From: Candidatus Omnitrophota bacterium
GTDB lineage: Bacteria > Omnitrophota > Gorgyraeia > Duberdicusellales > 4484-171
Reading direction: 5' to 3'
Length of the DNA: 64,000 nucleotides
Assembly: GCA_014729775.1 (NCBI GenBank)
Contig: WJJJ01000013.1
Coordinates: forward strand, 2,947 to 66,946
Shown here: positions 12,463 through 57,660 of the stretch, piece by piece
How positions within the stretch are numbered: the stretch's first letter is position 1
Layout of the letters: the number at the start of each line of letters is the position of its first letter
Translations under genes and position numbers: made by a program
Notes under the pieces: generated by a model
Database searches by the model: none
The model's input: only the letters and a program-made list of their open reading frames with translations
Told to the model about the DNA's origin: nothing

Positions 12463-13248
12463 ATGAAAACAATGAAAATACTGGTATTGAGTGTGCTCAT
12501 GACCGCGTTGACGGCCGGGTCTTCGTTTGCCTATTTGATTGACGGAGATCCCAGCGACTGGGGGATTACGCCCTTTACGGACTGGACTCCGGACAGCTGG
12601 ACCGCTGACTGGACGGAACAGGACAACTGGAATCCGCAGGAACCCGTGCAGGGGGCTGATTACGATTCCGATCCGTTTAACGAGCGGTGGGACCTGGAAG
12701 CGATGTATTTCGACGATGACGATGATTATTTTTATTTCGGCATCGTGACCTCGAATCCGTATGAACACAACTGGGCCAAAGAGGATCTGGCGATCGATCT
12801 GGACGGAGACGATTTCCCGGAATACGGGCTGGACGTAGCCAATCTGGAAGGCGATCAGCTGGAAATGAGAGGTGTCTATTCGGTCGAGGACTGGCGTGAA
12901 TTGCGCGACGTTCCCTACCGTATCGATGAGGGTGATCAGATCGGCCAGTACCAGATCTATCAGAAGTACCTCGGCGATATCGAGCCGGATCTCGGTCAGC
13001 CGGGCGGATACTACGGGCATACCTATTTTCTGGAGATGAAGGTGAACCGGGCGCTGTTCGGGAATATTCCCTGCGGTACGCCGATCAATATTTTGTTTTC
13101 GCGGGTGACCTGCTTGAAGGACTGGTTTATGGTCAACGGCTGTACCAACGGCAATTGTCCTCCGGGAGTCATTCCCGAACCGGCGACATTGTTCTTGCTG
13201 GGCGCAGGTCTTTTCGGCATAGCCGGATCCCGCCGCAGAAAAAAATAA
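12463..13248 (+). CDS. PEP-CTERM sorting-domain protein (secreted, D/E/W-rich)
   Basis: Signal peptide MKTMKILVLSVLMTALTAGSSFA; C-terminus VIPEPATLFLLGAGLFGIAGSRRRKK (PEP motif + TM + basic tail). Confidence 0.85.
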   Translation: MKTMKILVLSVLMTALTAGSSFAYLIDGDPSDWGITPFTDWTPDSWTADWTEQDNWNPQEPVQGADYDSDPFNERWDLEAMYFDDDDDYFYFGIVTSNPYEHNWAKEDLAIDLDGDDFPEYGLDVANLEGDQLEMRGVYSVEDWRELRDVPYRIDEGDQIGQYQIYQKYLGDIEPDLGQPGGYYGHTYFLEMKVNRALFGNIPCGTPINILFSRVTCLKDWFMVNGCTNGNCPPGVIPEPATLFLLGAGLFGIAGSRRRKK

Positions 13249-13299
13249 CCGCATTCCTTGTAGTACCTTTCTTTACGGCAGGGTGTATTGAGTGATACA

Positions 13300-13333
13300 A
13301 CGCAGGGGTTCCCCACCCCTGCGTCTTCATTTT
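13300..13333 (+). terminator. rho-independent terminator
   Basis: ACGCAGGGG-ttcccca-CCCCTGCGT stem-loop followed by cttcatttt. Confidence 0.6.
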
Positions 13334-13514
13334 CCCGGCCGGAATCCCTTGTGTGACTGCGTGAGAAAAGGCGGCGCGCGGCTCTTTTCCGGTGTCGGTT
13401 TTTTTTACGATGTCACGCAATTTTACAGTCATTCCGCCAGGGGGAGGATTCCGAGGCAAGAAGATTGAGGGGATTCTCTTTCCTTAGGGGGGGCGGGGGT
13501 AAAAAAGTCAATTT

Positions 13515-13530
13515 TGGCATGGATGTTGCT
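13515..13530 (+). promoter_or_regulatory. sigma-54 (-24/-12) promoter TGGCATG-N4-TTGCT
   Basis: tTGGCATggatgTTGCTa; GG 13516-17, GC 13528-29, 10-nt spacing; ~60 nt upstream of start 13590. Confidence 0.7.
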
Positions 13531-13589
13531 ACAGACTTATAAAGACTAATCATAAGAGAATGGCGGTTGAGGGAAAAGGAGGCATAATT

Positions 13590-14336
13590 ATGAAGAAGGT
13601 AGTGAGTTTGGTGTGCGCGGTACTCGTAGGGATGATGGTTCAGGGGGTGGCTGAAGCATACACGACTTCGCTCACATTCAGCGGGAGCGCGCTATATGAC
13701 CTGGAGAATCCCGTATATTTTACGGAAGAGATGGTGCCGGATGCTGATACCCGGGAATTTTTGAACGGAGAAGATCCGTTTACCGGCGTGGGCGTAATAG
13801 ATTATACGATTGATTGGGATCTGCCGGAGTGGGATGAGCCGCGGTATTGGTCGGTTGATGCCAGCGCGAGTCTCTACGGTGAATACGTCGACGGCAGCGG
13901 AACGCATCATCCGGACATGGATCTGCATTGGTCCTCCGGCACGGCGTATATGGGACATTTTTCCCTGCAGACTTTGTTCGGGGGAATGACCGAAGATCAG
14001 GTAGTGAATCAAATCGTGGCAATGCTGGATCCGTATTACAGCGGAGATCTCGGCGGATACGCCGTACTCGAAGAGGGATTGGGCGGCATCGCGTTGGTCG
14101 GTGACTTGAATGCCGGGACGATTTACCTCGGTACCCTTGAGGATATTGACAGCGTACTGTTTCAGTTGAACGAAGATTATGACGGTTCCATGGACGTGAC
14201 CTCCGCGGATGTGACGTTCAGCGGTCAGGTGAACGCGACTGCCGCGGCTACGCCGGAACCGACGACCGTCTTCATGCTGTTGTCCGGATTGTGCGGACTG
14301 GCCGGGGTCGGTTTTAAAAAGAAACAGAAGGAGTGA
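13590..14336 (+). CDS. PEP-CTERM sorting-domain protein
   Basis: RBS GGAGG + ATG 13590; signal peptide MKKVVSLVCAVLVGMMVQGVAEA; C-terminus ATPEPTTVFMLLSGLCGLAGVGFKKKQKE. Confidence 0.85.
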   Translation: MKKVVSLVCAVLVGMMVQGVAEAYTTSLTFSGSALYDLENPVYFTEEMVPDADTREFLNGEDPFTGVGVIDYTIDWDLPEWDEPRYWSVDASASLYGEYVDGSGTHHPDMDLHWSSGTAYMGHFSLQTLFGGMTEDQVVNQIVAMLDPYYSGDLGGYAVLEEGLGGIALVGDLNAGTIYLGTLEDIDSVLFQLNEDYDGSMDVTSADVTFSGQVNATAAATPEPTTVFMLLSGLCGLAGVGFKKKQKE

Positions 14337-15010
14337 GAGCGGTGAGGAAGACTGTATTATTTTTGATCGGCGCATTAGTGATATCTTTTCCGGCGTACGC
14401 GATTACCTGGCTGACGCCCAATCTGGTGGTGAATCCGGGCGCGGAGACTGGTGATACCTCCGGCTGGGAAGTGTACGGTCCGGCGTACGCGACGACCAGC
14501 CAGTCCCAGAGTACCGGGACGGTCCTGCCTCATTCCGGCGATTATTTCTTTTCCTATGCGCAGAACGCGGCTTCGGATGCGGTTTTAGTCCAGTACGCGG
14601 ATGTGTCGACTTTTGCCGGTTTGATTGATTCCGGCCAGGCATATGTGCAGGCTGGGTTTTGGTACCAAACTGAAGAATATCAAGGTTCGAGCGATGAGGC
14701 GTTCGGTTCGCTGGGTTTTTTTGAAGGGGACAGCAGCGATATGCCGTTTGACGTGCTCACATCCGATCCGCTGGTGTCATCGAGTTGGGCGTACACGGAG
14801 GTGATGGAGTTGATCCCTGCCGGTACCCGGACTATAGGATTGGCAATGATTGGAGAGCTTGAGTCCGGCTCGTACGTGAACGCGTTCTTTGACGACGCGC
14901 AGCTGCGGGTCGGCACTGAAACCGTTATTCCCGAACCGGCAACCCTGCTGCTGCTTGGTAGCGGCCTGCTGGGGCTGGGCGGGACGCGGCTGCGGCGCAG
15001 AAAAAGATAA
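14333..15010 (+). CDS. PEP-CTERM sorting-domain protein
   Basis: GTG start (14333 or 14342) overlapping upstream stop; signal peptide; C-terminus IPEPATLLLLGSGLLGLGGTRLRRRKR. Confidence 0.8.
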   Translation: MRAVRKTVLFLIGALVISFPAYAITWLTPNLVVNPGAETGDTSGWEVYGPAYATTSQSQSTGTVLPHSGDYFFSYAQNAASDAVLVQYADVSTFAGLIDSGQAYVQAGFWYQTEEYQGSSDEAFGSLGFFEGDSSDMPFDVLTSDPLVSSSWAYTEVMELIPAGTRTIGLAMIGELESGSYVNAFFDDAQLRVGTETVIPEPATLLLLGSGLLGLGGTRLRRRKR

Positions 15011-15066
15011 ACTGTCTGTAGTGCGTTCAGTGAGGAGTGACATTTTTTGAGGAGAGAGGAGTTGGC

Positions 15067-15780
15067 ATGAAGAAGTATGTGTGTCTTGTTTCGTTGTTAA
15101 TGCTGATGATGTACACCCCGGGTGCGTACGCGCTCGTGACCAATATTTCGCTTGATCCGGTTGATTGGGAAGTGGTGCCCGGATCTCAGACGATTAATTC
15201 CTCTCTAAGTAATCCGTCGCCGGATATGCTGCGGATCCAGAAAAGTTCCGCAAATCCAGGCAGCGGGCTGGGCGCATTCTATCAGACGACAGATAGGTAC
15301 GATTTCACTGACGCGATACTCCAGTACCAATGGCGATTCAACGGCCAGGGATCTTATGGGAACGTGTCGATCGGGCCTCGCCCATGGCCGGAAGGTTCAG
15401 GGGTCGGCGGCCGCTTTACCAGCGGCTGGTCTTTTGCGGGGAGTACGCTCATCACTTCCAATCAGTGGTATTATACTCAGTTGATTATTCATGACGATTT
15501 ATCCTATAGTTACGATATCAGCGCGTTGGGATACGGAGAAGGCGGTTTTGTGTCATCGACCGGGTCGCTTTCTTCTGCCCAGTACGATTCTCTTCAGGAC
15601 GGGATCTTTCGCGTGAACATATTTGACAACTGGGCGGCGAATCAATACGTGGATATCACCGATGCGACAATCGAAAGCGAGGGCGGTCCGCAGGGCCCGA
15701 TTCCCGAACCGGCAACCCTGCTGCTGCTTGGTAGCGGCCTGCTGGGGCTGGGCGGGAAGCGGCTGCGGCGCAGAAAATGA
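15067..15780 (+). CDS. PEP-CTERM sorting-domain protein
   Basis: RBS GGAG + ATG 15067; signal peptide MKKYVCLVSLLMLMMYTPGAYA; C-terminus IPEPATLLLLGSGLLGLGGKRLRRRK. Confidence 0.85.
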   Translation: MKKYVCLVSLLMLMMYTPGAYALVTNISLDPVDWEVVPGSQTINSSLSNPSPDMLRIQKSSANPGSGLGAFYQTTDRYDFTDAILQYQWRFNGQGSYGNVSIGPRPWPEGSGVGGRFTSGWSFAGSTLITSNQWYYTQLIIHDDLSYSYDISALGYGEGGFVSSTGSLSSAQYDSLQDGIFRVNIFDNWAANQYVDITDATIESEGGPQGPIPEPATLLLLGSGLLGLGGKRLRRRK

Positions 15781-15808
15781 CATTTGAGGCAAAAGGAAAG
15801 GATTTCGC

Positions 15809-16447
15809 ATGAAAGTTCTTATTTTAATCGCACTCACCGTGGGGATTATGTGTACTTCCGGTCAGGCGGCCGAAGCATTGATGATCCCTGAAGTTGAACC
15901 GAACGATTCATTCGCGGATGCAATGAATCTGGATCCCTATTTTTCCGTCGGGGCCAATTCCGATATCGTTGATTCGGCAACCGTGCCCTGGGTTTCAGTG
16001 AGCGGGACCGGGAACGATACTTACGATTACTATTCGTTCACCGTTCCCTTCGCCGGGTCGCAGGGGATTTTTGAAATTGACTATGGGTATGGGGTCGGCG
16101 GAAGTATTGATCCGATACTCCTGCTCTACGCGTCGCCGTACAACCAGCTTGACGGTGACGACGATTCCAATCCGGCATGGGGTGCCGGCGGCAGTACCTC
16201 CTGGTTGGATTCGTATTTACCGCATGGCGGCGGGTGGTATACCTTTCATTCTCCCGGGCTGTATTATCTGCGGGTGAGTGAATGGTCGAGAGGACCGGTG
16301 CGTCCCGGCGGAACGTATACCCTGCAGGCATCAGTGAGCGGGCATAGCACGGATACGGTGATCCCCGAGCCGGCGACCCTGCTGCTGTTGGGCAGCGGCT
16401 TGCTCGGCGTGGGCGGATTCAAGCTTCGCCGCAGGAAAACAGCGTAA
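15809..16447 (+). CDS. PEP-CTERM sorting-domain protein
   Basis: Signal peptide MKVLILIALTVGIMCTSGQAAEA; C-terminus VIPEPATLLLLGSGLLGVGGFKLRRRKTA. Confidence 0.85.
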   Translation: MKVLILIALTVGIMCTSGQAAEALMIPEVEPNDSFADAMNLDPYFSVGANSDIVDSATVPWVSVSGTGNDTYDYYSFTVPFAGSQGIFEIDYGYGVGGSIDPILLLYASPYNQLDGDDDSNPAWGAGGSTSWLDSYLPHGGGWYTFHSPGLYYLRVSEWSRGPVRPGGTYTLQASVSGHSTDTVIPEPATLLLLGSGLLGVGGFKLRRRKTA

Positions 16448-16591
16448 GTGTCGGTATCTTTGACAAAGTCGGATATGTTAACAACGCTTTCGGCGAAAGA
16501 GAGAGGCGAGAGCCTTACAGAGGGAGTTATGACCAGAAATAAGGCAAAATCAGGCCGAAAGAGAAGTTTTTTTGCATTGACGGCTACTTTT

Positions 16592-16607
16592 TGGCACAGG
16601 AATTGCT
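16592..16607 (+). promoter_or_regulatory. sigma-54 (-24/-12) promoter TGGCACA-N4-TTGCT
   Basis: tTGGCACaggaaTTGCTt; GG 16593-94, GC 16605-06, 10-nt spacing; ~75 nt upstream of ATG 16682. Confidence 0.75.
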
Positions 16608-16681
16608 TTAATATCAGGTGGAACGTGGGAACACAAATGAATAGCTTGAAACGGAAGAGAGCAGAACAAGGAGGAATAGCG

Positions 16682-17575
16682 ATGAAAAGAGTTTTAGGAG
16701 TAGCAGCATTGGGGATTTTACTTACGGTGTGCGGCAACGCGTTTGCGTTTCACGCCAGTAACATTCAGTTTGATCTGACGCCGGCCGGTATTACCGGGAC
16801 CACTCCTGACGGTGATAATGTAACCGGTTTTTTCAATCAGTTGCAGACATATATGCAGACGTCATCTTACGTGACGGATAACGGAGACGGGTTGCCGTCT
16901 GTAGGAGATACGTTTGTGGATGTGGGTGATTTGAATGTGACCGCGTTGCTTGGTGGCGGGTCACTGTTGGATACCGAAGGGTTGAACACGCCGACGCTCG
17001 GGTATGAAATTACCGGTCGCTGGGATGATTTGACCGGCGGAATCGTGGATGCGTCGGTATCCGGTGGGGGAACAACGACCCTTTTGTATGATTACACCGG
17101 CGGAACGCTGAATATGTACGCGGACCAGCCGCCCAACCAGACTTACAACAGCGGTATTGGCTCCAACGATGACAATCCGGCAACGTTCACCGACGGGTCG
17201 TTGATCGGTACCCTTCAGCTTGTGAGCGGAAGCGGTTCGTTGATTGTTGACGCGGCCGGCAATCCTATTCAGGGCGCGACTACCCTTTCCTGGAGATTTA
17301 CCAATATGCTTCCCGGGTTTTGGCTGGATGCGGCCGGTAATGATCTGAGCACTTACGTGTTTACTGTAGGTTGGGAAGTACAGGCGCTGTCCGGCTCGGA
17401 TACTCATGGGGAGACGTTGATTCTTACCGATAACGGTGACGGTACCTATCGTGTTGACTCAGATCATGACGGTTCCGTAAGTGTGGGCGTGATTCCGGAA
17501 CCGGCGTCTCTGCTTCTTTTGGGCGGCGGATTGTTTGGGTTAGCCGGCATTGGTATTCGCAAGAAAAAGAAATAA
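16682..17575 (+). CDS. PEP-CTERM sorting-domain protein (G/T/D-rich)
   Basis: RBS GGAGG 16670-74 + ATG 16682; signal peptide MKRVLGVAALGILLTVCGNAFA; C-terminus VIPEPASLLLLGGGLFGLAGIGIRKKKK; the listed ORF 16448.. is an in-frame upstream extension without RBS. Confidence 0.85.
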   Translation: MKRVLGVAALGILLTVCGNAFAFHASNIQFDLTPAGITGTTPDGDNVTGFFNQLQTYMQTSSYVTDNGDGLPSVGDTFVDVGDLNVTALLGGGSLLDTEGLNTPTLGYEITGRWDDLTGGIVDASVSGGGTTTLLYDYTGGTLNMYADQPPNQTYNSGIGSNDDNPATFTDGSLIGTLQLVSGSGSLIVDAAGNPIQGATTLSWRFTNMLPGFWLDAAGNDLSTYVFTVGWEVQALSGSDTHGETLILTDNGDGTYRVDSDHDGSVSVGVIPEPASLLLLGGGLFGLAGIGIRKKKK

Positions 17576-17603
17576 ACCTTTTGGCGGATTGTACAAGGTT
17601 CAA

Positions 17604-17640
17604 AAGAGGCAGGGATAATTCCCTGCCTCTTTCTTTTTTT
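17604..17640 (+). terminator. rho-independent terminator
   Basis: AAGAGGCAGGG-ataatt-CCCTGCCTCTT followed by T9 run. Confidence 0.8.
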
Positions 17641-17651
17641 AGACCGTAATC

Positions 17652-18512
17652 ATGAAAAAAGCCGTATCTATCCTACTTGCCGGGATTTTGACCGCCTCCG
17701 GTATCTCTTCTGCTTCGGCGGCGGTGGTGTATCTGTCCTCAACACGTCAGATTGATCTCGGCGGGGTGACTTCGGAAATGTATCAGGTGCTGAAGTATGA
17801 TACTTTCAGCGGCGAAGCCTCGCTGTTTTTCGATGAATTCGATCCGCTCAATGTCCTGACCGGAAGAGATAAGCAGATCGACGCTCTGCACGTACTCGAT
17901 GAGGATAATATTATCCTTTCTACCACCCGTGATGTGCGCTTCAGCGAAGAGGAGGACGAGCCGTGGTTTAAGGACGGCGATGTGTTTAGATACACCTTTT
18001 CTACCGGGACGGCGGTCCTGCTGTTCAGCCAGGAGCATTTCACCGATGCCCGGGAAGATATCAATGCGTTGCAGTATATTGACGAGGACACGCTGTTACT
18101 GTCCGTGCGGGGCAATGCTGAGCTCGGCGGCTTATCTTTTCGCGACGGTGACGTGGTGCGCTATACTCTTTCCACCGATACTGCCGAATTGTTTTTCAAC
18201 GAAGACAGTTTTTTGGGCAACGAGGACATTGACGCGTTCTCTATGATAGACGAACAGAACATCCTGTTATCCACGCAGGCAAGCGCGACGCTCGGTGATC
18301 TTGTGTTCCGGGACGGAGACATTATCCAGTATAACTTGATCACGGGACAGGCGAGTCTGTTCTTAAGCGAAGATTTGATATCTTCGCCGGTGGATGTCGA
18401 CATTGACGCCTTTCACTTCGTGGCCGGTACCCCGGTGATCCCCGAACCGGCGACATTTCTGTTGTTCCTTTTCGGTCTTTTTCCCCTTTTCCGCTGCCGT
18501 TGCCGCGGGTAA
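17652..18512 (+). CDS. PEP-CTERM-like sorting-domain protein with divergent C-terminal tail and internal triple repeat
   Basis: Signal peptide; three ~45-aa repeats (DGDVFRYTFSTGTAVLLFSQEHF / DGDVVRYTLSTDTAELFFNEDSF / DGDIIQYNLITGQASLFLSEDL); C-terminus VIPEPATFLLFLFGLFPLFRCRCRG. Confidence 0.75.
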   Translation: MKKAVSILLAGILTASGISSASAAVVYLSSTRQIDLGGVTSEMYQVLKYDTFSGEASLFFDEFDPLNVLTGRDKQIDALHVLDEDNIILSTTRDVRFSEEEDEPWFKDGDVFRYTFSTGTAVLLFSQEHFTDAREDINALQYIDEDTLLLSVRGNAELGGLSFRDGDVVRYTLSTDTAELFFNEDSFLGNEDIDAFSMIDEQNILLSTQASATLGDLVFRDGDIIQYNLITGQASLFLSEDLISSPVDVDIDAFHFVAGTPVIPEPATFLLFLFGLFPLFRCRCRG

Positions 18513-18583
18513 CCATCCCGTTCTACTTATTTCCCAATCTCGACTTCCCCCGTACCCTTTCTCCTGCCCGCTTCTTACCCACT

Positions 18584-18682
18584 GTTAACTTCGTAGGTTA
18601 ACCGCATAGCCAAAAAAGCATTGATTCTGTTGACTTTGGTTAACTTCGTAGGTTAACACGGGGGGAGGTTAACACGGGGGGG
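18584..18682. repeat. REP-like GTAG-containing palindromic repeats (GTTAAC-ttcGTAG-GTTAAC x2 plus GGTTAACACGGGGG x2)
   Basis: Exact 19-bp copies at 18584-18602 and 18639-18657; half-copies at 18651-18664 and 18667-18682; immediately upstream of an IS200/RAYT-type transposase gene. Confidence 0.55.
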
Positions 18683-18763
18683 CGGATGTGGGTGAGCGGA
18701 GGAGGGGTGACGAAGAGTTGACAGAGGGCGAAAAAAGAGAGATTATAACGAGAGGAGGTGAGG

Positions 18764-19468
18764 ATGAAGCTGAGAATTGAGGACGGCGGCGTGTATCATA
18801 TATTTAATCGGAGCATCGCCAATTTTGTTATTTTTCATACGGAGAGCGATTATAGAAGGATTATCTGCGCTTTTTCTTTTTTTCAATGGAGAGATCTTCC
18901 CTGTAGTTTCAACCGGCTTCTGAAACGGATTGAAACGGGTCAGCTCACAGAAAAGGACATTTTAAAAAAACAGATTCGATTACCGCGCACTCAAATCATC
19001 GCCTATTGCCTCATGCCGACTCATTTGCATATGATTTTAACACAGATAACTGCTGACGGAATAGCTCAGTATATGAAAAACGTACAGAACAGCTATACAC
19101 GCTATTTCAATACCAAGTACCACAGAAAAGGGCCCTTATGGGAAAGTCGGTATAAAAAAGTTCGGGTTACTACTGACAACCAGTTGCTGCATTTGACCCG
19201 TTACCTGCATTTAAATCCGGTCACGGCTCATCTGGTTGACGATCCGGAGCAATGGCCGTATTCTTCGTATCATGAGTACCTCAACCGTATTCCTGCAGAC
19301 GAGAGGATCTGCGGGTACGAAGATGTATTGGAAGTCAAACCTCGATCTTACCAGAAATTCGTAAGAGAACGCATTCATGATCAACGGGATATTGCCGCGC
19401 TCAAGAAATTTCATTTGGAAGATTGCGGCGATCATTTGTATGCAAAAATACCTTCTGTTCAATCTTGA
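18764..19468 (+). CDS. IS200/IS605-family Y1 (HUH) transposase, REP-associated tyrosine transposase (RAYT)-like
   Basis: YHIFNRSIANFVIF N-terminus, HUH motif LMPTHLHMIL, catalytic-Tyr region YTRYFN...RYLHLNPV; gene is conspicuously AT-rich relative to flanks. Confidence 0.75.
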   Translation: MKLRIEDGGVYHIFNRSIANFVIFHTESDYRRIICAFSFFQWRDLPCSFNRLLKRIETGQLTEKDILKKQIRLPRTQIIAYCLMPTHLHMILTQITADGIAQYMKNVQNSYTRYFNTKYHRKGPLWESRYKKVRVTTDNQLLHLTRYLHLNPVTAHLVDDPEQWPYSSYHEYLNRIPADERICGYEDVLEVKPRSYQKFVRERIHDQRDIAALKKFHLEDCGDHLYAKIPSVQS

Positions 19469-19542
19469 ATCCAGAGGCATTCGGAAAAGATCTGTGTGTG
19501 TAGGAGCACACACCCTGTGAGCCTCTGAGGGTAACGCGGTGA

Positions 19543-28422: not shown

Positions 28423-28619
28423 GTGGTAAGGTGAAACTGACATGTATGGTGTGCGCCCTGTGCGTCGCGTTTCTCACCGGATGTAAAGGCGGCGGTGGAG
28501 GAGGAGATCAGTATTCCTATCTGCAAGATATTCCTCATCAGCCTGAACCGGCGACAATCGTGATGTTCGGACTCGGCGCACTGGGCGTGTTCGGCGCGCG
28601 TAAGTTTAAAAAGAAATAA
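28419..28619 (+). CDS. mini PEP-CTERM lipoprotein (66 aa: lipobox signal peptide + Gly run + PEP-CTERM sorting signal)
   Basis: RBS AAGGAGGG; MSGKVKLTCMVCALCVAFLTGC (lipobox LTGC) KGGGGGGDQYSYLQDIPHQ PEPATIVMFGLGALGVFGARKFKKK. Confidence 0.7.
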   Translation: MSGKVKLTCMVCALCVAFLTGCKGGGGGGDQYSYLQDIPHQPEPATIVMFGLGALGVFGARKFKKK

Positions 28620-31612: not shown

Positions 31613-32473
31613 ATGAATAAGAAGATCTCATTTGCCGGTATCGAACTTACCCTCAGGACGTTGCGGCGGATTGTGCTTATGAGCGCGCTTTTCGCGGCGG
31701 TGTATTTTCCCGTAATCCCCCATTTTATCTCGCGGTTTTCCGCCCGTGATTCCTATTATTCTCATGGTTTCTTGATCCCTGTGGTTTCGCTGTATTTGGT
31801 GTTTCGCAGCCGGGAAATACTGGCCCGTATACCCACATGGCCGCATCCGGCCGGTTTCGCGCTGATTCTTTTAGGGCTGGCAATGTATCTGATCGGGTAT
31901 GTGCTTCAGATCAATTTCGGGATGTACGCGAGCCTGCTGCCGGTGCTCTTCGGATTAGCGCTGTATTTGGGGGGATCGCAATACTTCCGGGTATTGTTCT
32001 TTCCCATTCTATTTTTGGGATTCATGCTGCCGCTGCCGCAAGTATTCATTATCGGCGCTTCATTCCGGTTGAAACTCATGGCCGCGCAGGCAGCGACGTT
32101 CCTGTCGCGAATGATGGGAATAGAGGCAGTGCAAAATGGATCGATGATTTACTATCCGGGCGGGCAGATACTTGTCGGAGATCCCTGCAGCGGGTTGAGG
32201 TCGTTGATTGCATTTATCGCGCTCGGGGCGCTGTGTGCTTATCTGGCACGGGGAAGTACGATCAAACGGGTGTTACTGTTTGTTCTTGCCGTGCCGGTCG
32301 CGCTTTTCTCAAATCTGTTGAGGCTGACCTTTCTGGTCGGGGTCGGCTATGTCTACGGCGAAAAAATCGCTTCGGGGACGGTGCATGATGTTTCAGGGAT
32401 GCTGGTGTTTGTACTCGGTTTTCTCTGTTTTGTGGGTCTTATCCGGCTGTTAGGCTGCCGGATTGAGGTGTGA
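31613..32473 (+). CDS. xrtA: exosortase (EpsH/XrtA-type archaeosortase/exosortase family)
   Basis: 8 TM helices; conserved Cys in GDPCSGLRSLIAF and downstream Arg in NLLRLTFLVG, the exosortase catalytic signature; XrtA subtype assigned from context only. Confidence 0.85.
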   Translation: MNKKISFAGIELTLRTLRRIVLMSALFAAVYFPVIPHFISRFSARDSYYSHGFLIPVVSLYLVFRSREILARIPTWPHPAGFALILLGLAMYLIGYVLQINFGMYASLLPVLFGLALYLGGSQYFRVLFFPILFLGFMLPLPQVFIIGASFRLKLMAAQAATFLSRMMGIEAVQNGSMIYYPGGQILVGDPCSGLRSLIAFIALGALCAYLARGSTIKRVLLFVLAVPVALFSNLLRLTFLVGVGYVYGEKIASGTVHDVSGMLVFVLGFLCFVGLIRLLGCRIEV

Positions 32474-48957: not shown

Positions 48958-49338
48958 ATGCCGAGAGGAGACGGAACAGGGCCTCAAGGATTTGGTCCCA
49001 TGACAGGACGGGCCGCGGGGTATTGCGCTGGATTTGGAGTTCCGGGCTTTATGAACGTGGGGCCGGGCAGAGGATTTGGCCGCGGATATGGTCGCGGTTT
49101 TGGCCGCGGATATGGTCGCGGTTTTGGCCGCGGATTTGGTCGCGGTTTTGGCCGCGGCGCTGGGGCGGCATGGAGACAGGATGCGTATGCCTATCCGCCG
49201 GCCGGGTATTCCGGCACCCTTTCCCCGGAGGATGAATCCCGGGCGTTACGCGCCCAGGCCGAAGGGATGGAACGTGAACTTCAGGCGGTGAAGCAGCGTC
49301 TGCAGGAATTGGAAAATCAGGCTGCTCAGGAAGAATAA
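48958..49338 (+). CDS. DUF5320-like protein with Gly-Arg-aromatic repeats and C-terminal coiled coil
   Basis: RGFGRGYGRGFGRGYGRGFGRGFGRGFGRG array then a heptad-rich tail; recalled as often found next to NifX-like and Fe-S ATPase genes. Confidence 0.5.
   Translation: MPRGDGTGPQGFGPMTGRAAGYCAGFGVPGFMNVGPGRGFGRGYGRGFGRGYGRGFGRGFGRGFGRGAGAAWRQDAYAYPPAGYSGTLSPEDESRALRAQAEGMERELQAVKQRLQELENQAAQEE
49076..49150 (+). repeat. tandem 24-bp DNA repeat (GGCCGCGGATATGGTCGCGGTTTT x3+) encoding the GFGRGYGR motif
   Basis: Directly visible: tttggccgcggatatggtcgcggttttggccgcggatatggtcgcggttttggccgcggatttggtcgcgg. Confidence 0.8.
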
Positions 49339-52157: not shown

Positions 52158-52466
52158 ATGCCGGATTTCGGGAATGCGTTTTCGGGATTAAAAAATGACA
52201 GAAAGCTCACCAGAGAAGAATTGATCCGTGCGGTGAGGTTCATGATCGCCGCCGAATACGAGGCGATCCAGCTGTATATGCAGCTGGCCGAATCCACGGA
52301 TCACGAACTCGTGCAGGAGGTACTGCGTGATGTTGCCGACGAGGAAAGGGTCCATGCGGGTGAATTCCTGCGCTTATTGAAGGAGCTTGCTCCGGACGAA
52401 GAGGAGTTTTATCGCGAGGGCGAAGAAGAGGTCGAAGAGGAGTTCTTGCGGAAGAAGAAACGCTGA
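52158..52466 (+). CDS. small ferritin-like/rubrerythrin-type diiron protein (EncFtn-like)
   Basis: ~100 aa; AAEYEAIQLYMQLAE and DEERVHAGEF resemble the E..E..A...Y / EE..H metal-ligand helices of ferritin-like proteins; acidic C-terminal tail. Confidence 0.45.
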   Translation: MPDFGNAFSGLKNDRKLTREELIRAVRFMIAAEYEAIQLYMQLAESTDHELVQEVLRDVADEERVHAGEFLRLLKELAPDEEEFYREGEEEVEEEFLRKKKR

Positions 52467-52470
52467 CCTT

Positions 52471-52579
52471 CCCCCCAAACTAGGTTCAACCTACGCGGTT
52501 GAACTCACCGTGAGCCCCGATCGAGAAAGGAAAATCAAGGAAACCTTGTGGTTCAACCTACGCGGTTGAACCGGGGGGG
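52471..52579. repeat. REPIN/MITE-like element: C6 - [GGTTCAACC-TACGC-GGTTGAAC] - 46-bp spacer - [GGTTCAACC-TACGC-GGTTGAAC] - G7
   Basis: Two identical 22-bp GTAG-containing palindromes (52483-52504, 52551-52572) flanked by CCCCCC/GGGGGGG; 90-bp core differs by 1 nt from the copy at 54136. Confidence 0.7.
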
Positions 52580-52782
52580 ACGGGTTCGTGGATCCGGATA
52601 TCGGGTCATCAGCAATACCAAAATTCTCTGATATTCCGGAGTGCGTGCATCTACTTTTTTCCTGTTCGCTCTGTTCGATTGCAAGGTCAACGTTTTTCCT
52701 ATACAATAGGTTTTCACCCAGGAAATAGTGTTTGTATGTGGGAGGGGCTTGATTCCCGAGGAGTGCGACGGACAGGAGGCGC

Positions 52783-54120
52783 ATGCGAATACTCATAATC
52801 GGAGCGGGGCCAACCGGCTTAAGCACGGGCCGGAGGCTTCTTGAGTTGGGACACGATGATTTTACAATCTATGAACAGCACTCCTACGCGGGAGGGCTGT
52901 GTGCCAGTTTCCGCGATGAGCAGGGTTTTACCTGGGATCTCGGCGGGCATGTGATCTTTTCCCAGTATCCCTACTTCAACCAGTTGTTTGAATCGGCGCT
53001 CCACGGTCAATTTTACGAGCATACCCGGAAGGCCTGGATTTATTTCATGGACCGATGGGTGCCTTATCCGTTTCAAAACAACCTTCGTCATCTGCCGCGG
53101 GAGGTAATTGCCAAGTGCGTGCGGGATCTTCGTGCGGCGCATCGCAAGAATACTTCTCCGGAGAATTTCAAAGAGTGGATTATGGCCAACATGGGCGAAG
53201 GGATCGCCCAGTATTTTATGCTTCCCTATAACGAAAAAGTATGGGCGTATCCGCTGGAGGACATGAGTGCGGACTGGATCACCGAACGGGTCAGCCGGCC
53301 TGACGTAAAAGAAGTGGTAGGGCTGCTGATCTCAGATAAAGACCGTATGGATTGGGGGCCGAACTCCATTTTTAAGTTTCCCGCTGAAGGGGGGACGGGC
53401 CAGATCTTCCATAACGTGGCCGCCCAGCTTGCACAGAAGATACAGTTCGATACGCGCGTGGAGGAGGTGGATCTTATTGGTAAAAGCGTGAAGCTGAGTA
53501 ACGGCGCGCGGCAAGGGTATGATGTATTGGTGAATACTTCTCCCCTCGATCTTTTCACCCGCATGTGCGCAGGGGCGCCGGCATCGCTGACGGAATGGGG
53601 GGAACAATTGGCACACAATCGGGTATGGGTCGTTGGCGTGGGATTAAAGAAAGGAGCGCTCGATGAAAAATCGTGGGGATATTTTCCGCAGAAGGATGTG
53701 CCGTTCTTCCGCGCGACCTATTTTTCCAATTATTCTCCACGTAACGTACCCGGCCCGGGATACCGGTCGTTTTTGTGCGAAACGGCATATTCTGAGGATT
53801 CCCCATTTGGAAAAAACCAAGCCGTGGATACGACGATCGCAGGTCTTCTTGACACCGGTTTAATCGCGCCGGAGGAAAGGAGCAATATTGTGTCTACGTT
53901 TTCATTCGATATCCCTTACGCCTATCCCATTCCTACCCTAAACCGGGAGAAAGTATTGGCGCGGATTAATCCGCTGCTTGAAGAGCACGGGGTGTTTTCG
54001 CGAGGTCGTTTCGGGGCGTGGCGGTATGAAGTAGGCAATACCGACCATTCGGTCATGCAGGGGAAAGAAATCGCCGACCGGATAGTGAACGGAACGACAG
54101 AGACGGTGTGGCACGGGTAA
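52783..54120 (+). CDS. NAD(P)/FAD-binding oxidoreductase (amine-oxidase / UDP-galactopyranose-mutase superfamily)
   Basis: N-terminal Rossmann MRILIIGAGPTGLSTGRRLLELGHDDFTIYEQHSYAGGLCAS...WDLGGHVIF. Confidence 0.65.
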   Translation: MRILIIGAGPTGLSTGRRLLELGHDDFTIYEQHSYAGGLCASFRDEQGFTWDLGGHVIFSQYPYFNQLFESALHGQFYEHTRKAWIYFMDRWVPYPFQNNLRHLPREVIAKCVRDLRAAHRKNTSPENFKEWIMANMGEGIAQYFMLPYNEKVWAYPLEDMSADWITERVSRPDVKEVVGLLISDKDRMDWGPNSIFKFPAEGGTGQIFHNVAAQLAQKIQFDTRVEEVDLIGKSVKLSNGARQGYDVLVNTSPLDLFTRMCAGAPASLTEWGEQLAHNRVWVVGVGLKKGALDEKSWGYFPQKDVPFFRATYFSNYSPRNVPGPGYRSFLCETAYSEDSPFGKNQAVDTTIAGLLDTGLIAPEERSNIVSTFSFDIPYAYPIPTLNREKVLARINPLLEEHGVFSRGRFGAWRYEVGNTDHSVMQGKEIADRIVNGTTETVWHG

Positions 54121-54130
54121 ATACCTAAAA

Positions 54131-54255
54131 CCGCCGGTTCAACCTACGCGGTTGAACTCACCGTGAGCCCCGATTGAGAAAGGAAAATCAAGGAAACCTT
54201 GTGGTTCAACCTACGCGGTTGAACCGGGTTGGGGCACGCGGTTGAACCGGGGGAG
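54131..54255. repeat. REPIN/MITE-like element, second copy (with extra partial third palindrome)
   Basis: 54136-54225 is 89/90 identical to 52483-52572; extra GCGGTTGAACCGGGGG at 54237-54252; begins 11 bp after the oxidoreductase stop. Confidence 0.7.
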
Positions 54256-54421
54256 GCAAATGCTTCGCTTCTTTTTTTTCTCTCCGTAAGCAGCTGTCGT
54301 TGGGTTCTTTACCCGCCGTTGTTTCCCTTCGTGTGTGCCTTCCTCGGGCTGATCCCGGCGGGAAAGTGTGAACCAAATCAAAATAAACAGGACGCAGGCC
54401 CTGTCTGAATAGTTCCCGCTA

Positions 54422-54533
54422 TCCTATAATCATTATAGATATTCCGCACCTCACAGATTAGCGATAAGCGCGCGGCGCGTCAGGTGTGCCTCGCCTCCCC
54501 CTTTGTGTGCCCCGCGCGAGTCGCTAATCTGTC
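54422..54533. promoter_or_regulatory. Fur-core-like palindrome CTATAATCATTATAG plus long inverted repeat ACAGATTAGCGA...TCGCTAATCTGT
   Basis: 15-bp perfect palindrome 54424-54438 containing ATAATCATTAT (centre of the E. coli Fur box) and a TATAAT hexamer; 12-bp perfect IR arms at 54452-54464 / 54521-54533 extendable to ~22 bp with a bulge. Confidence 0.4.
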
Positions 54534-54754
54534 TTCATCTCTTTGCGCAATCTGTCAACTCCGCCTGGGGCGATTTTCCCTGGTGAGTGCCTCATTTCTG
54601 AGTACGCGGTTCGCCCCGGACAGGCGAGTACCGAGAGTGCCGGAAATTATCCGTGACCGATTGCAAAGCGTATGATTTTCTTATAGAATACCTTTGCGTG
54701 AGGGAAATCCGGGGGATACAATGACTGCCGGTAATTGGAGGAAGGAGGCTTGAC

Positions 54755-55663
54755 ATGGGTTCGATCACACACGCTGCGGGGTTGCTTCAGGAAAAACTGA
54801 AAACATGGCTGGAGTCCTGCATTTTGGTCCTGCCGAATTTTCTCGTCGCCCTGCTGGTGCTGGTAGTGAGTTATCTTCTTTCCCGGCGCTTGTCAGCCGT
54901 GGTTCGCGGCATGTTGTCCCGTTTTGTGAAAAATCAGGCCCTGATTAATTTTCTTGGTATTCTTGTTCGCATCACGGTTCTGCTTCTTGGTTTTCTGATC
55001 GCCCTTCGGATACTTGATCTAGACGACGCGTTTTTTTCAGTGATGGCCGGGGTCGGGATCGCCGGGATCGCGATCGGCTTCGCGTTTCAGGATGTTGCTT
55101 CGAACTTTATCGCCGGAATCGCCCTGGTTTTCCGTTCCGACCGGCCGTTTAAAGTGGGAGATGTGGTGGAGACCAATGATTTTATCGGGGTGATCAAAGA
55201 GATTAATTTGCGGGATACACTCCTTGAAACCTTTCACGGGCATTCGATCTTTATCCCGAACAAGCTTATTTTTGAGAACGCGGTGGTCAACTACACCCTG
55301 AAGGGGCAGCGCCGGGTAGATTTACAGGTGGGTATTTCCTATGGCGAAGATTTGGAAAAGGTGAAAGAAGTAACCATGGCCGCGCTTGAACCTGTGACCG
55401 GAAAACTGGCCGCCCGGCCGGTGGAATTTTATTTTGAAGAGTTCGGCAACAGTTCCATCAACTTTCAGGTGAGGGTGTGGATTCCATTCGTCAGTCAGCC
55501 GGAATATTTACGGACGCGCAGTGACATGGTGGTTCGTATCAAGAAAGCTTATGATCAGCACGGCATTACCATTCCTTTTCCGATTCGGACACTTGACTTC
55601 GGCATTAAGGGCGGGGAAAAACTTTCCGCCATGCTTTCCTCCAAAGAGGGATTCGGCAGTTAG
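54755..55663 (+). CDS. mscS: small-conductance mechanosensitive channel (MscS family)
   Basis: Three N-terminal TM helices, pore helix with GIAGIAIGFAFQD, conserved beta-domain PFKVGDVVE. Confidence 0.8.
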   Translation: MGSITHAAGLLQEKLKTWLESCILVLPNFLVALLVLVVSYLLSRRLSAVVRGMLSRFVKNQALINFLGILVRITVLLLGFLIALRILDLDDAFFSVMAGVGIAGIAIGFAFQDVASNFIAGIALVFRSDRPFKVGDVVETNDFIGVIKEINLRDTLLETFHGHSIFIPNKLIFENAVVNYTLKGQRRVDLQVGISYGEDLEKVKEVTMAALEPVTGKLAARPVEFYFEEFGNSSINFQVRVWIPFVSQPEYLRTRSDMVVRIKKAYDQHGITIPFPIRTLDFGIKGGEKLSAMLSSKEGFGS

Positions 55664-57084: not shown

Positions 57085-57105
57085 TAAGACGTGCAGGTTT
57101 TTTGC

Positions 57106-57134
57106 TTGACGTTTGAGAGTTTTTCCTATATAGT
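57106..57134 (+). promoter_or_regulatory. sigma-70-like promoter (TTGACG-N17-TATAGT)
   Basis: -35 TTGACG 57106-11; -10 TATAGT 57129-34 (alt TATATA 57127-32); 35 nt upstream of PerR-like gene. Confidence 0.45.
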
Positions 57135-57168
57135 AGCTATTCCTATCTGACAGTGAAAGGAGCGCGCA

Positions 57169-57660
57169 ATGGAGAGATTTTTGCAGCGTTGCAGGCAAGA
57201 TCGTATACGGATCACTCCTCAGCGGGAGGCGATTTACCGGGTGGTGAAAGACGCTCACGAACACCCGTATGCACAACGGGTATATCGTAAAGTGAAACCC
57301 AGATTCCGGTCTATCTCATTTGATACGGTCAACCGCACGTTGGAACTGTTCGTGCGTATGGGGCTGTTGAAGACGGTAGAGGGCAGCGGGCAGCCAAAGC
57401 GGTTTGATGCCGATCTCGGATCTCATTCGCATTTCCGCTGTACGCGGTGTAACACGATTTTTGATTTTTCTTACGGTCCTTACGAACGGTTGACAGTTCC
57501 CCGCAAGATCAGCACGCGGCACTCAGTCCGGTCCGTGAGTGTAGTAATAGAGGGTATATGCGAACGATGTTCACGCAGGAAACCGGCCCCGAAAGAAGGT
57601 GTTCATGAAAGTGTTAGGGATATGCGGAACCAACAAAAAAGAAGAAAAATCGGCAAGTGA
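57169..57660 (+). CDS. Fur-family regulator (PerR-like)
   Basis: RITPQREAIYRVV...H.YAQRVYRKV...ISFDTVNRTLELFVRMGL winged helix; CTRC and CERC CxxC pairs. Confidence 0.75.
   Translation: MERFLQRCRQDRIRITPQREAIYRVVKDAHEHPYAQRVYRKVKPRFRSISFDTVNRTLELFVRMGLLKTVEGSGQPKRFDADLGSHSHFRCTRCNTIFDFSYGPYERLTVPRKISTRHSVRSVSVVIEGICERCSRRKPAPKEGVHESVRDMRNQQKRRKIGK

Follow-up and report, generated by a model that had tools for sequence, protein, structure and literature searches.

Probable REP-type hairpin doublets bracket an oxidoreductase gene in an uncultured Omnitrophota genome

Introduction

Repetitive extragenic palindromic (REP) elements and their REP-associated tyrosine transposases (RAYTs) are known mostly from Proteobacteria, with GTAG at the hairpin foot and with inverted doublets. 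REPs are palindromic stem-loops of 20-40 bp in extragenic DNA, dispersed through a genome in many copies. In canonical REPs, GTAG (or GTGG) lies 0-2 nt 5' of the foot of the stem (PMC6006769, PMC3733652). Two REPs in inverted orientation constitute a REPIN (REP doublet forming a hairpin), an arrangement that accounts for 93% of the doublets in SBW25 (PMC3116915, Bertels & Rainey 2011). The doublet is the replicative unit, each RAYT is served by one REP family and copies are placed close to stop codons (PMC3116915, PMC3733652). Here we analysed 64 kb of DNA from a Candidatus Omnitrophota metagenome-assembled genome (MAG; assembly GCA_014729775.1, contig WJJJ01000013.1), hereafter the window, to which all positions refer unless another locus is named. 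Within it, two short elements, A and B, bracket a gene for an FAD-binding oxidoreductase. Judged by their sequence, A and B are probably REP-type doublets of the RAYT class, that is, non-autonomous repeats; we assign them to this type because their hairpin class adjoins genes for RAYT-like HUH/Y1 enzymes in other MAGs. A and B are an atypical variant found in uncultured Omnitrophota, with GTAG at the loop and dimers arranged head to tail. Owing to the apical GTAG and the direct doublets, we class them as a REP/RAYT variant and not as strict REPINs.

Two matching doublets flank one gene

A repeat search aligned positions 52483-52575 with 54136-54228 as a 93-nt direct repeat that is identical at 92 of 93 positions, spacer included, the sole mismatch being C at 52522 in A and T at 54175 in B. 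A first-pass annotation, made from the sequence alone, had described two near-identical elements around an FAD-oxidoreductase gene (open reading frame (ORF) 52783-54120), each with two palindromes, a spacer of about 46 bp and a G-run; the repeat search and a motif scan bear this description out. The plus-strand sequence of the palindrome is GGTTCAACC-TACGC-GGTTGAAC(C), with two direct copies per element. Its 22-mer, GGTTCAACCTACGCGGTTGAAC, occupies 52483-52504 and 52550-52571 in A and 54136-54157 and 54203-54224 in B, always in direct orientation. These four are the only matches in the window when up to three mismatches are allowed, against an expectation of 0.00 from 100 shuffles. The palindromes are 21-23 nt long, with perfect 8-9 bp stems and 5-nt loops, and all four lie in intergenic gaps. 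Between the hairpins of each element is a spacer of 45-46 nt that contains CTCACCGTGAG and CAAGGAAACCTTG.

GTAG is present on the minus strand of the hairpins, within GCGTAGGTTGAAC, as had been noted for the strand opposite the palindrome. It comprises the last three bases of the loop plus the base that opens the 3' stem (GCGTA/GG, the slash marking the end of the loop) and is thus apical. Both loops of each doublet read TACGC on the plus strand, so that the two hairpins are head to tail (direct), not inverted. The frames of the two elements are as follows. Copy A has a C-run, CCCCCC (52471-52476), and a G-run, GGGGGGG (52573-52579). Copy B is preceded by CCGCC (54131-54135), is followed by GGGTTGGGGC and extends into a third partial unit formed by a half-site and a G-run, ACGCGGTTGAACCGGGGG (54236-54253). 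From the TGA stop (52464-66) of an EncB-family ferritin-like gene it is 5 nt to the start of A and 16 nt to the start of its core. From the TAA stop (54118-20) of the oxidoreductase gene it is 10 nt to the CCGCC foot of B and 15 nt to the core of B; the earlier statement that the second copy starts 11 bp after the stop was therefore right about its closeness to the stop and inexact about the distance.

We also folded the elements, as the first-pass annotation had proposed, and found folds stronger than those of shuffled sequences. Whole-element RNA folds gave z scores of -3.2 and -4.6, with -50.6 kcal/mol for element A (z -3.2). As single-stranded DNA, element A gave z -3.7 on both strands and element B -4.8 and -5.6. 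The long hairpin that spans a whole doublet can form only because each stem is a perfect palindrome in itself.

The hairpin class lies beside RAYT genes in other genomes

To place these hairpins, we compared six independent loci from other MAGs that encode RAYT homologs (50-57% identity); these and other comparison loci carry the letter L and a number, and their hairpins are listed in Table 1. In five of the six, perfect hairpins with the apex ACC-[T/G]CGTA-GGT stand within about 100 nt of the ends of the RAYT gene. Across all RAYT and control loci compared, the motif ACC-N-CGTA-GGT is essentially restricted to RAYT flanks, the exceptions being A, B, L002, L007, the third copy at L020 and one coding-region match in the window. 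RAYT genes of this kind are thus flanked by hairpins, with one distinct paralog for each hairpin family. In the Omnitrophota MAG GCA_016935525.1 (L008 and L023), two RAYT paralogs each have a hairpin family of their own, with loops TCGTA versus GCGTA on related stems (TTTGGCAACC and CTGGCAACC). Two MAGs carry two RAYT paralogs each, at about 50% identity.

The A/B hairpin itself is present in a second MAG. A relaxed two-hairpin pattern led to the Omnitrophota MAG JBBIOC010000042 (L002), in which three direct copies of GTTCAACC-GCGTA-GGTTGAAC are accompanied by extra half-sites. This cluster of the identical 21-nt hairpin occupies the gap between two co-directional genes and has the same orientation to transcription as A and B. 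The hairpin family thus extends beyond the locus studied here and is no duplication private to it. The exact 22-mer had no match in viral, genome and metagenome collections, which do not contain the source MAG.

Some further matches were recorded. The sole metagenome match to the exact 21-nt hairpin lies at 6100-6120 of L007 (JGI Ga0105164_10000929). Translated in frame, it gives TRSTYAVEQ in the signal-peptide part of an ORF of 110 aa, and it may be either an intragenic REP or a chance match. Loci L001 and L003-L006 (Prolixibacteraceae, Parcubacteria), which the relaxed two-hairpin pattern yielded as well, have half-sites in common with A and B and were treated as a different family on account of their differing loops. 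At 1664-2866 of L004 (Prolixibacteraceae MAG DAIMEA010000015), arrays of GTTCAAC-N7-GTTGAAC with A/T-rich loops that lack GTAG flank a distant Y1-transposase-like ORF (31% identity by tblastn to GF333_08045, a RAYT paralog introduced below). Similar arrays are present in L001, L005 and L006.

The RAYT of the window and its second paralog

The window encodes a RAYT-like transposase of its own (Table 1). It scored 32.5 bits against Pfam Y1_Tnp (cut-off 23), and its only NCBIfam match was REP_Tyr_transpos (NF047646), at 68.2 bits and so below the 80-bit cut-off. The HUH (MPTHxH) and tyrosine (LTRYxHLNP) motifs are invariant in eight members of the clade. The best solved relative of the clade profile is E. 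coli TnpA_REP (4ER8, E = 2.3e-7); ISDra2 TnpA followed at 1.6e-4.

Directly upstream of this gene is a sister element of a different sequence family, in which GTTAACT-TCGTA-GGTTAAC is found twice in direct orientation (18584-18602 and 18639-18657) around a 36-nt spacer. Two G-runs, ACGGGGGG and ACGGGGGGG, follow in its 3' part, on either side of an additional half-site, GGTTAAC (18667-73), and its outer flanks are CCCAC and GTGGG. Comparison was made by eye, a MAFFT alignment having been out of register. The order doublet, G-run, extra half-site, G-run is common to the sister element and B, which supports the kinship in design that had been proposed with the element at 18584. GTAG is on the plus strand in this doublet and on the minus strand in A and B. 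The plus strand is probably the lagging-strand template, since it carries almost all genes and GC skew is positive throughout the window.

The window RAYT probably does not act on A and B, given that the hairpins flanking it have a different stem. A second paralog in the same MAG, GF333_08045 (MBD3246937.1), lies on a 23-kb contig and is 50% identical to the first. By analogy with the two paralogs and two hairpin families of GCA_016935525.1, we predict that GF333_08045 is the partner, and most likely the enzyme, for A and B.

Two other features of the window RAYT locus were observed. The RAYT gene (18764-19468) has a GC content of 0.423 and a third-position GC content (GC3) of 0.451, well below the window means of 0.537 and 0.611. 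Downstream of it, at 19494-19513, is a different hairpin, GTGTGTG-TAGGAG-CACACAC, in which GTAG is again near the apex.

A model for the spread of the doublets

The mobile unit that we propose would be about 93-110 nt long and consist of two identical, perfect, head-to-tail hairpins, a 45-nt spacer and C-rich and G-rich feet. In single-stranded DNA, the 21-23-nt palindrome would extrude, and its apex, ACC-GCGTA-GGT on the minus strand, would display the CGTAG motif. A RAYT-like HUH/Y1 enzyme of the Omnitrophota clade would recognise this apex and cut and rejoin the strand, and the reaction would copy the whole doublet into new intergenic sites. Copies would persist where they are harmless, which at this locus is the 3' end of each of two successive transcription units, directly behind the stop codon and upstream of the promoter that follows. 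A and B would probably be transcribed as structured 3' untranslated regions (UTRs) and may act at the RNA level. The bracketing of the oxidoreductase gene would then reflect two insertions into neighbouring permissive gaps and not a gene-capture device, although the 93-nt direct repeats could still permit RecA-type deletion of the 1,653-bp segment.

Several observations weigh against assigning A and B to the REP/RAYT class. GTAG is at the loop instead of the 5' foot, so a defining feature of canonical REPs fails, and the head-to-tail dimer fails the corresponding feature of REPINs; head-to-tail dimers are reported to be missing from known families or under-represented in them (PMC3733652). Only two doublets of the A/B type (four hairpins) are present in the 64-kb window. 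Copies away from RAYT genes are rare in the RAYT loci sampled, with one only, at L020, and the RAYT clade may therefore be a poor disperser. A search for close relatives of GF333_08045 that might belong to the L002 MAG, and so link this paralog to the L002 hairpins, gave no homolog above 57% identity. Finally, A and B are adjacent and the gene that they enclose is outside the usual operon of its family, which would also fit translocation of that gene.

Was the oxidoreductase gene moved?

The sequence neither demonstrates nor excludes capture of the oxidoreductase gene by A and B. In one version of such an event, a 1,653-bp unit (the oxidoreductase gene with its promoter and a single doublet) was inserted into a doublet already in place, leaving direct repeats on both sides. 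The route could have been RAYT-driven single-strand 'peel and paste' between ends of the same orientation, as in IS200/IS605, or a circular intermediate followed by homologous recombination. We regard this translocation as unlikely, while acknowledging that three observations fit it. Hairpins of equal orientation flank the RAYT gene itself in L021, so a hairpin-gene-hairpin layout is natural for this RAYT clade. The two doublets are neighbours, and their 99% identity extends to the spacer. Homologs of the oxidoreductase gene (50-55% identity; L016-L019 and L024-L026) are embedded in glycan-biosynthesis operons in four independent contexts, together with GT2, PMT_2 or DUF2079, and B12-radical-SAM genes. 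In the window, the oxidoreductase gene is on its own, surrounded by iron and redox genes, and a tblastn search of the window gave no match for GT2, PMT_2 or radical SAM operon partners.

The properties of the gene itself argue the other way. Its product matches MBD3246028.1 from a Candidatus Omnitrophica MAG (80.6-kb contig) at 100% identity. The next homolog, at only 56%, gives no hint that a copy was mobile in recent times. Its composition and codon usage are native: GC (0.529) and GC3 (0.599) are near the window means of 0.537 and 0.611, and codon usage is typical. Its promoter overlaps an 18-nt box, GTTTTTCCTATAnAATAG, that occurs at 52692-52709, 54674-54691 and 57119-57136 (three matches against 0.18 expected) and that overlaps the -10 element of three consecutive promoters, those of the oxidoreductase gene, the MscS operon and a PerR-like Fur-family gene. 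Sharing of the box with the two downstream transcription units suggests local regulatory integration of the oxidoreductase gene; the box may be a shared operator, and the regulator gene (57169-57660) may be autoregulated. Moreover, two elements would fall into adjacent gaps by chance with a probability of about 0.125, given the 16 gaps of at least 100 nt in the window. The first-pass annotation had considered both excision or capture of the gene and a preferred insertion context just after stop codons. The second account fits better, as the gene is of native composition, has its own promoter and shares a box with its neighbours. We consider it quite unlikely that A and B serve as the two ends, left and right, of a RAYT-mobilisable unit with an ordinary metabolic gene as cargo (a 'REP-bounded gene cassette'), in which a domesticated HUH/Y1 transposase would have moved a host gene in trans from its ancestral glycan operon.

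Elements with a role in RNA, attC sites and other explanations

A and B might instead be primarily RNA-level cis elements (3'-UTR stabilisers, terminators or insulators) that were duplicated locally and kept by selection, with no current transposase. Each copy starts 5-16 nt beyond a stop codon, where one transcription unit ends, and upstream of the promoter that follows; their orientation to transcription equals that of the L002 cluster; and the predicted fold is strong. Published work on REPs (PMC3733652) includes roles in mRNA stabilisation and termination among those it describes, which we count in favour of such an origin. Nevertheless, we judge it very unlikely as the primary explanation. 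The hairpins are not followed by a U-tract on the sense strand, and an RNA-level role leaves unexplained both the apex motif beside RAYT genes in many MAGs and the 99% identity of a spacer that does not pair. It is also compatible with the REP-type assignment and does not exclude it. Intrinsic terminators were considered separately and rejected, as G-runs, and no U-tract, follow the hairpins, and the inner terminator-like calls are weak and on the minus strand. Rfam gave no match across the whole window at the gathering threshold, or in 52400-54800 at E <= 1.

The possibility that A and B are integron-type attC sites, or another pair of tyrosine-recombinase sites, bounding a gene cassette is extremely remote. 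By inspection, GTTCAAC (RYYYAAC), 7 nt and GTTGAAC (GTTRRRY) resemble the R''/L'' and L'/R' boxes, the distance from R'' to R' is 88 nt, a 5x5 internal loop recalls the unpaired central spacer and the gene ends just before the downstream site. However, no integrase, recombinase or cas domain was detected among 48 ORFs scanned across the window, which holds two sites only and no array. In addition, GGTTGAAC and GTTCAACC pair perfectly and without a bulge, so that the L box has no extrahelical bases; the supposed cassette has its own promoter and a 207-nt leader; and the genes with which the hairpin class is associated are those of HUH/Y1 enzymes.

The first-pass annotation had described the elements as REP-, REPIN- or MITE-like. 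The REP-type part of that description is upheld by the same apex beside RAYT homologs, the strict REPIN part is contradicted by the direct doublet, and the miniature inverted-repeat transposable element (MITE) was discarded, since terminal inverted repeats and target-site duplications are lacking: the outer feet differ (CCCCCC/GGGGGGG in A, CCGCC/GGGGG in B) and no flank is duplicated. It had also allowed for A and B being the only two copies and the product of an assembly duplication; such a duplication is ruled out by the unique flanks, the one-base difference and the 23 additional nt of B, and the same hairpin is present in another MAG (L002). There is next to no chance that the pair is an assembly artefact or a CRISPR-like mini-array (22-nt repeat, 45-nt spacer, repeat): the repeat-spacer-repeat layout and the palindromic repeat recall the latter, but the spacer is the same in both copies, the 48 scanned ORFs include no cas genes and the hairpin in an independent MAG speaks against both.

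Neighbouring genes and other features

The surroundings of A and B are ordinary chromosomal DNA. Upstream of A are genes for Fur, DUF5320, two NifX-like, two MinD/Fer4 and ferritin-like proteins; downstream of B are MscS, metallophosphoesterase, flavodoxin, PerR-like regulator, FMN reductase and other genes. The ferritin-like gene (52158-52466, 102 aa) scored 96.6 bits against the NCBIfam EncB family of encapsulin cargo proteins (cut-off 90); the scanned neighbours of 52158-52466 include no gene for an encapsulin shell. The DUF5320 gene (48958-49338) contains a 12-nt tandem repeat (49060-49169) that encodes a Gly-Arg-Gly-Phe/Tyr tract. The gap downstream of B is unusually long (634 nt) and contains an inverted repeat (54453-54476 and 54509-54532) with 24-nt arms that are 83% complementary around a 32-nt loop; the repeat, 54453-54532, had no Rfam match and no convincing ORF. 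Elsewhere, the window encodes at least six PEP-CTERM proteins (13157-18470, 28542-28568 and 31613-32473) with near-identical DNA for the C-terminal sorting signal (repeat families D1, D3 and D4), as well as an exosortase (EpsH) gene and a cluster of glycosyltransferase genes for extracellular polysaccharide.

Table 1 Features of the window and hairpins of the comparison loci
Feature	Position	Strand	Description
Element A	52471..52579	+	C-run foot, hairpin A1, 45-nt spacer, hairpin A2, G-run foot
Hairpin A1	52483..52504	-	GTTCAACC-GCGTA-GGTTGAAC(C); 8-9 bp perfect stem, 5-nt loop
Spacer of A	52505..52549	+	Mini-palindromes CTCAC-C-GTGAG and CAAGG-AAA-CCTTG; same in B except 52522
Hairpin A2	52550..52572	-	GGTTCAACC-GCGTA-GGTTGAACC; 9-bp stem; orientation of A1
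Element B	54131..54256	+	CCGCC foot, B1 (54136-54157), spacer, B2 (54203-54225), GGGTTGGGGC
Element B, 3' part		+	Extra 3' half-site ACGCGGTTGAACC (54236-54248), G-run (54249-53)
Bracketed gene	52783..54120	+	445-aa FAD/NAD(P)-binding amine-oxidase-like protein, MBD3246028.1; Amino_oxidase and NAD_binding_8 matches
Oxidoreductase promoter	52679..52707	+	Sigma-70-like TTGCAA-17-TACAAT; overlaps the box of promoters 54661-54689 and ~57105-57136
RAYT-like HUH/Y1 transposase	18764..19468	+	MBD3245988.1 (GF333_03160), 234 aa
Sister element	18578..18692	+	Directly upstream of RAYT gene; different sequence family
L008			CCTTTGGCAACC-TCGTA-GGTTGCCAAAGG
L014			TCCACC-TCGTA-GGTGGA; inverted pair upstream, single copy downstream
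L020			42-nt double palindrome on both sides; third copy ~1 kb off, 7 nt after a stop codon
L021			CCATCCGCAACC-TCGTA-GGTTGCGGATGG on both sides, equal orientation
L023			CTGGCAACC-GCGTA-GGTTGCCAG on both sides; 15-mer CAACCGCGTAGGTTG in common with A and B
L010 (sixth locus, other apex)			ACATAACC-CCGGA-GGTTATGT

Discussion

In uncultured Omnitrophota, genes of a large RAYT-like clade have perfect hairpins with a conserved CGTAG at the loop on their flanks, and the dispersed copies seen in the MAG studied here are head-to-tail doublets. Standard finders of REPs and REPINs, which need GTAG at the foot and inverted pairs, would overlook this class, and its enzyme may recognise the hairpin in another way than E. 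coli TnpA_REP does. We found no paper that joins RAYTs with Omnitrophota or Patescibacteria; as coverage of the literature was incomplete, this is weak evidence of novelty. A broader proposal, which we hold to be quite improbable, is that a very large undescribed RAYT clade of Omnitrophota and the Candidate Phyla Radiation, with more than 2,400 database homologs, would use apical CGTAG hairpins instead of a foot GTAG. The bracketed oxidoreductase gene offers a concrete case for asking whether REP-type ends can relocate a host gene. Should a fuller genome contain only ordinary dispersed copies, the finding would amount to routine repeat annotation.

Comparison with known systems

Among the systems compared, attC sites resemble A and B in their paired RYYYAAC/GTTRRRY heptamers, an unpaired central spacer and a site right after the cassette ORF; they differ in that the present locus has no IntI gene, extrahelical bases or array, and its gene has its own promoter. 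The ends of IS200/IS605 insertion sequences have sub-terminal hairpins of equal orientation, which an HUH/Y1 enzyme recognises on a single strand, and a deletion derivative of such an element would have the layout hairpin, short spacer, hairpin, which is that of A and B. We presume a likeness to palindrome-associated transposable elements (PATEs), which we take to be transposase-less IS200/IS605 derivatives. In contrast to IS200/IS605, the clade profile is nearer TnpA_REP than ISDra2 TnpA, and no cleavage or target tetranucleotide is definable for A and B.

REPINs likewise have features in common with A and B. As in A and B (93 nt, 99% identical), the doublet including its spacer is the conserved unit, the whole unit is predicted to fold in single-stranded DNA or RNA, and the elements are non-autonomous, with the presumed transposase encoded elsewhere. 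The hairpins of A and B differ from those of REPINs in being direct (head to tail), as judged by their asymmetric loops.

The REP/RAYT systems, represented by the REPs and bacterial interspersed mosaic elements (BIMEs) of E. coli with YafM and by the REPs of Pseudomonas, are the kind to which we assign A and B as a variant. Differences remain: GTAG of A and B straddles the loop and the 3' stem, as it does in the RAYT-flanking hairpins of this clade, unlike in canonical REPs; the A/B class combines perfect stems with a constant loop of 5 nt, xCGTA; the window RAYT is below the NCBIfam cut-off (68 versus 80 bits); copy number appears to be low, as seen in a 64-kb window; and the host phylum is Omnitrophota. 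Nonetheless, like A and B, REP/RAYT elements are short, perfect, extragenic palindromes with a conserved GTAG, found as singles, dimers or clusters close to stop codons (PMC3733652, PMC3116915), and, as in the A/B class, their hairpins flank single-copy HUH/Y1 genes, with one family per paralog.

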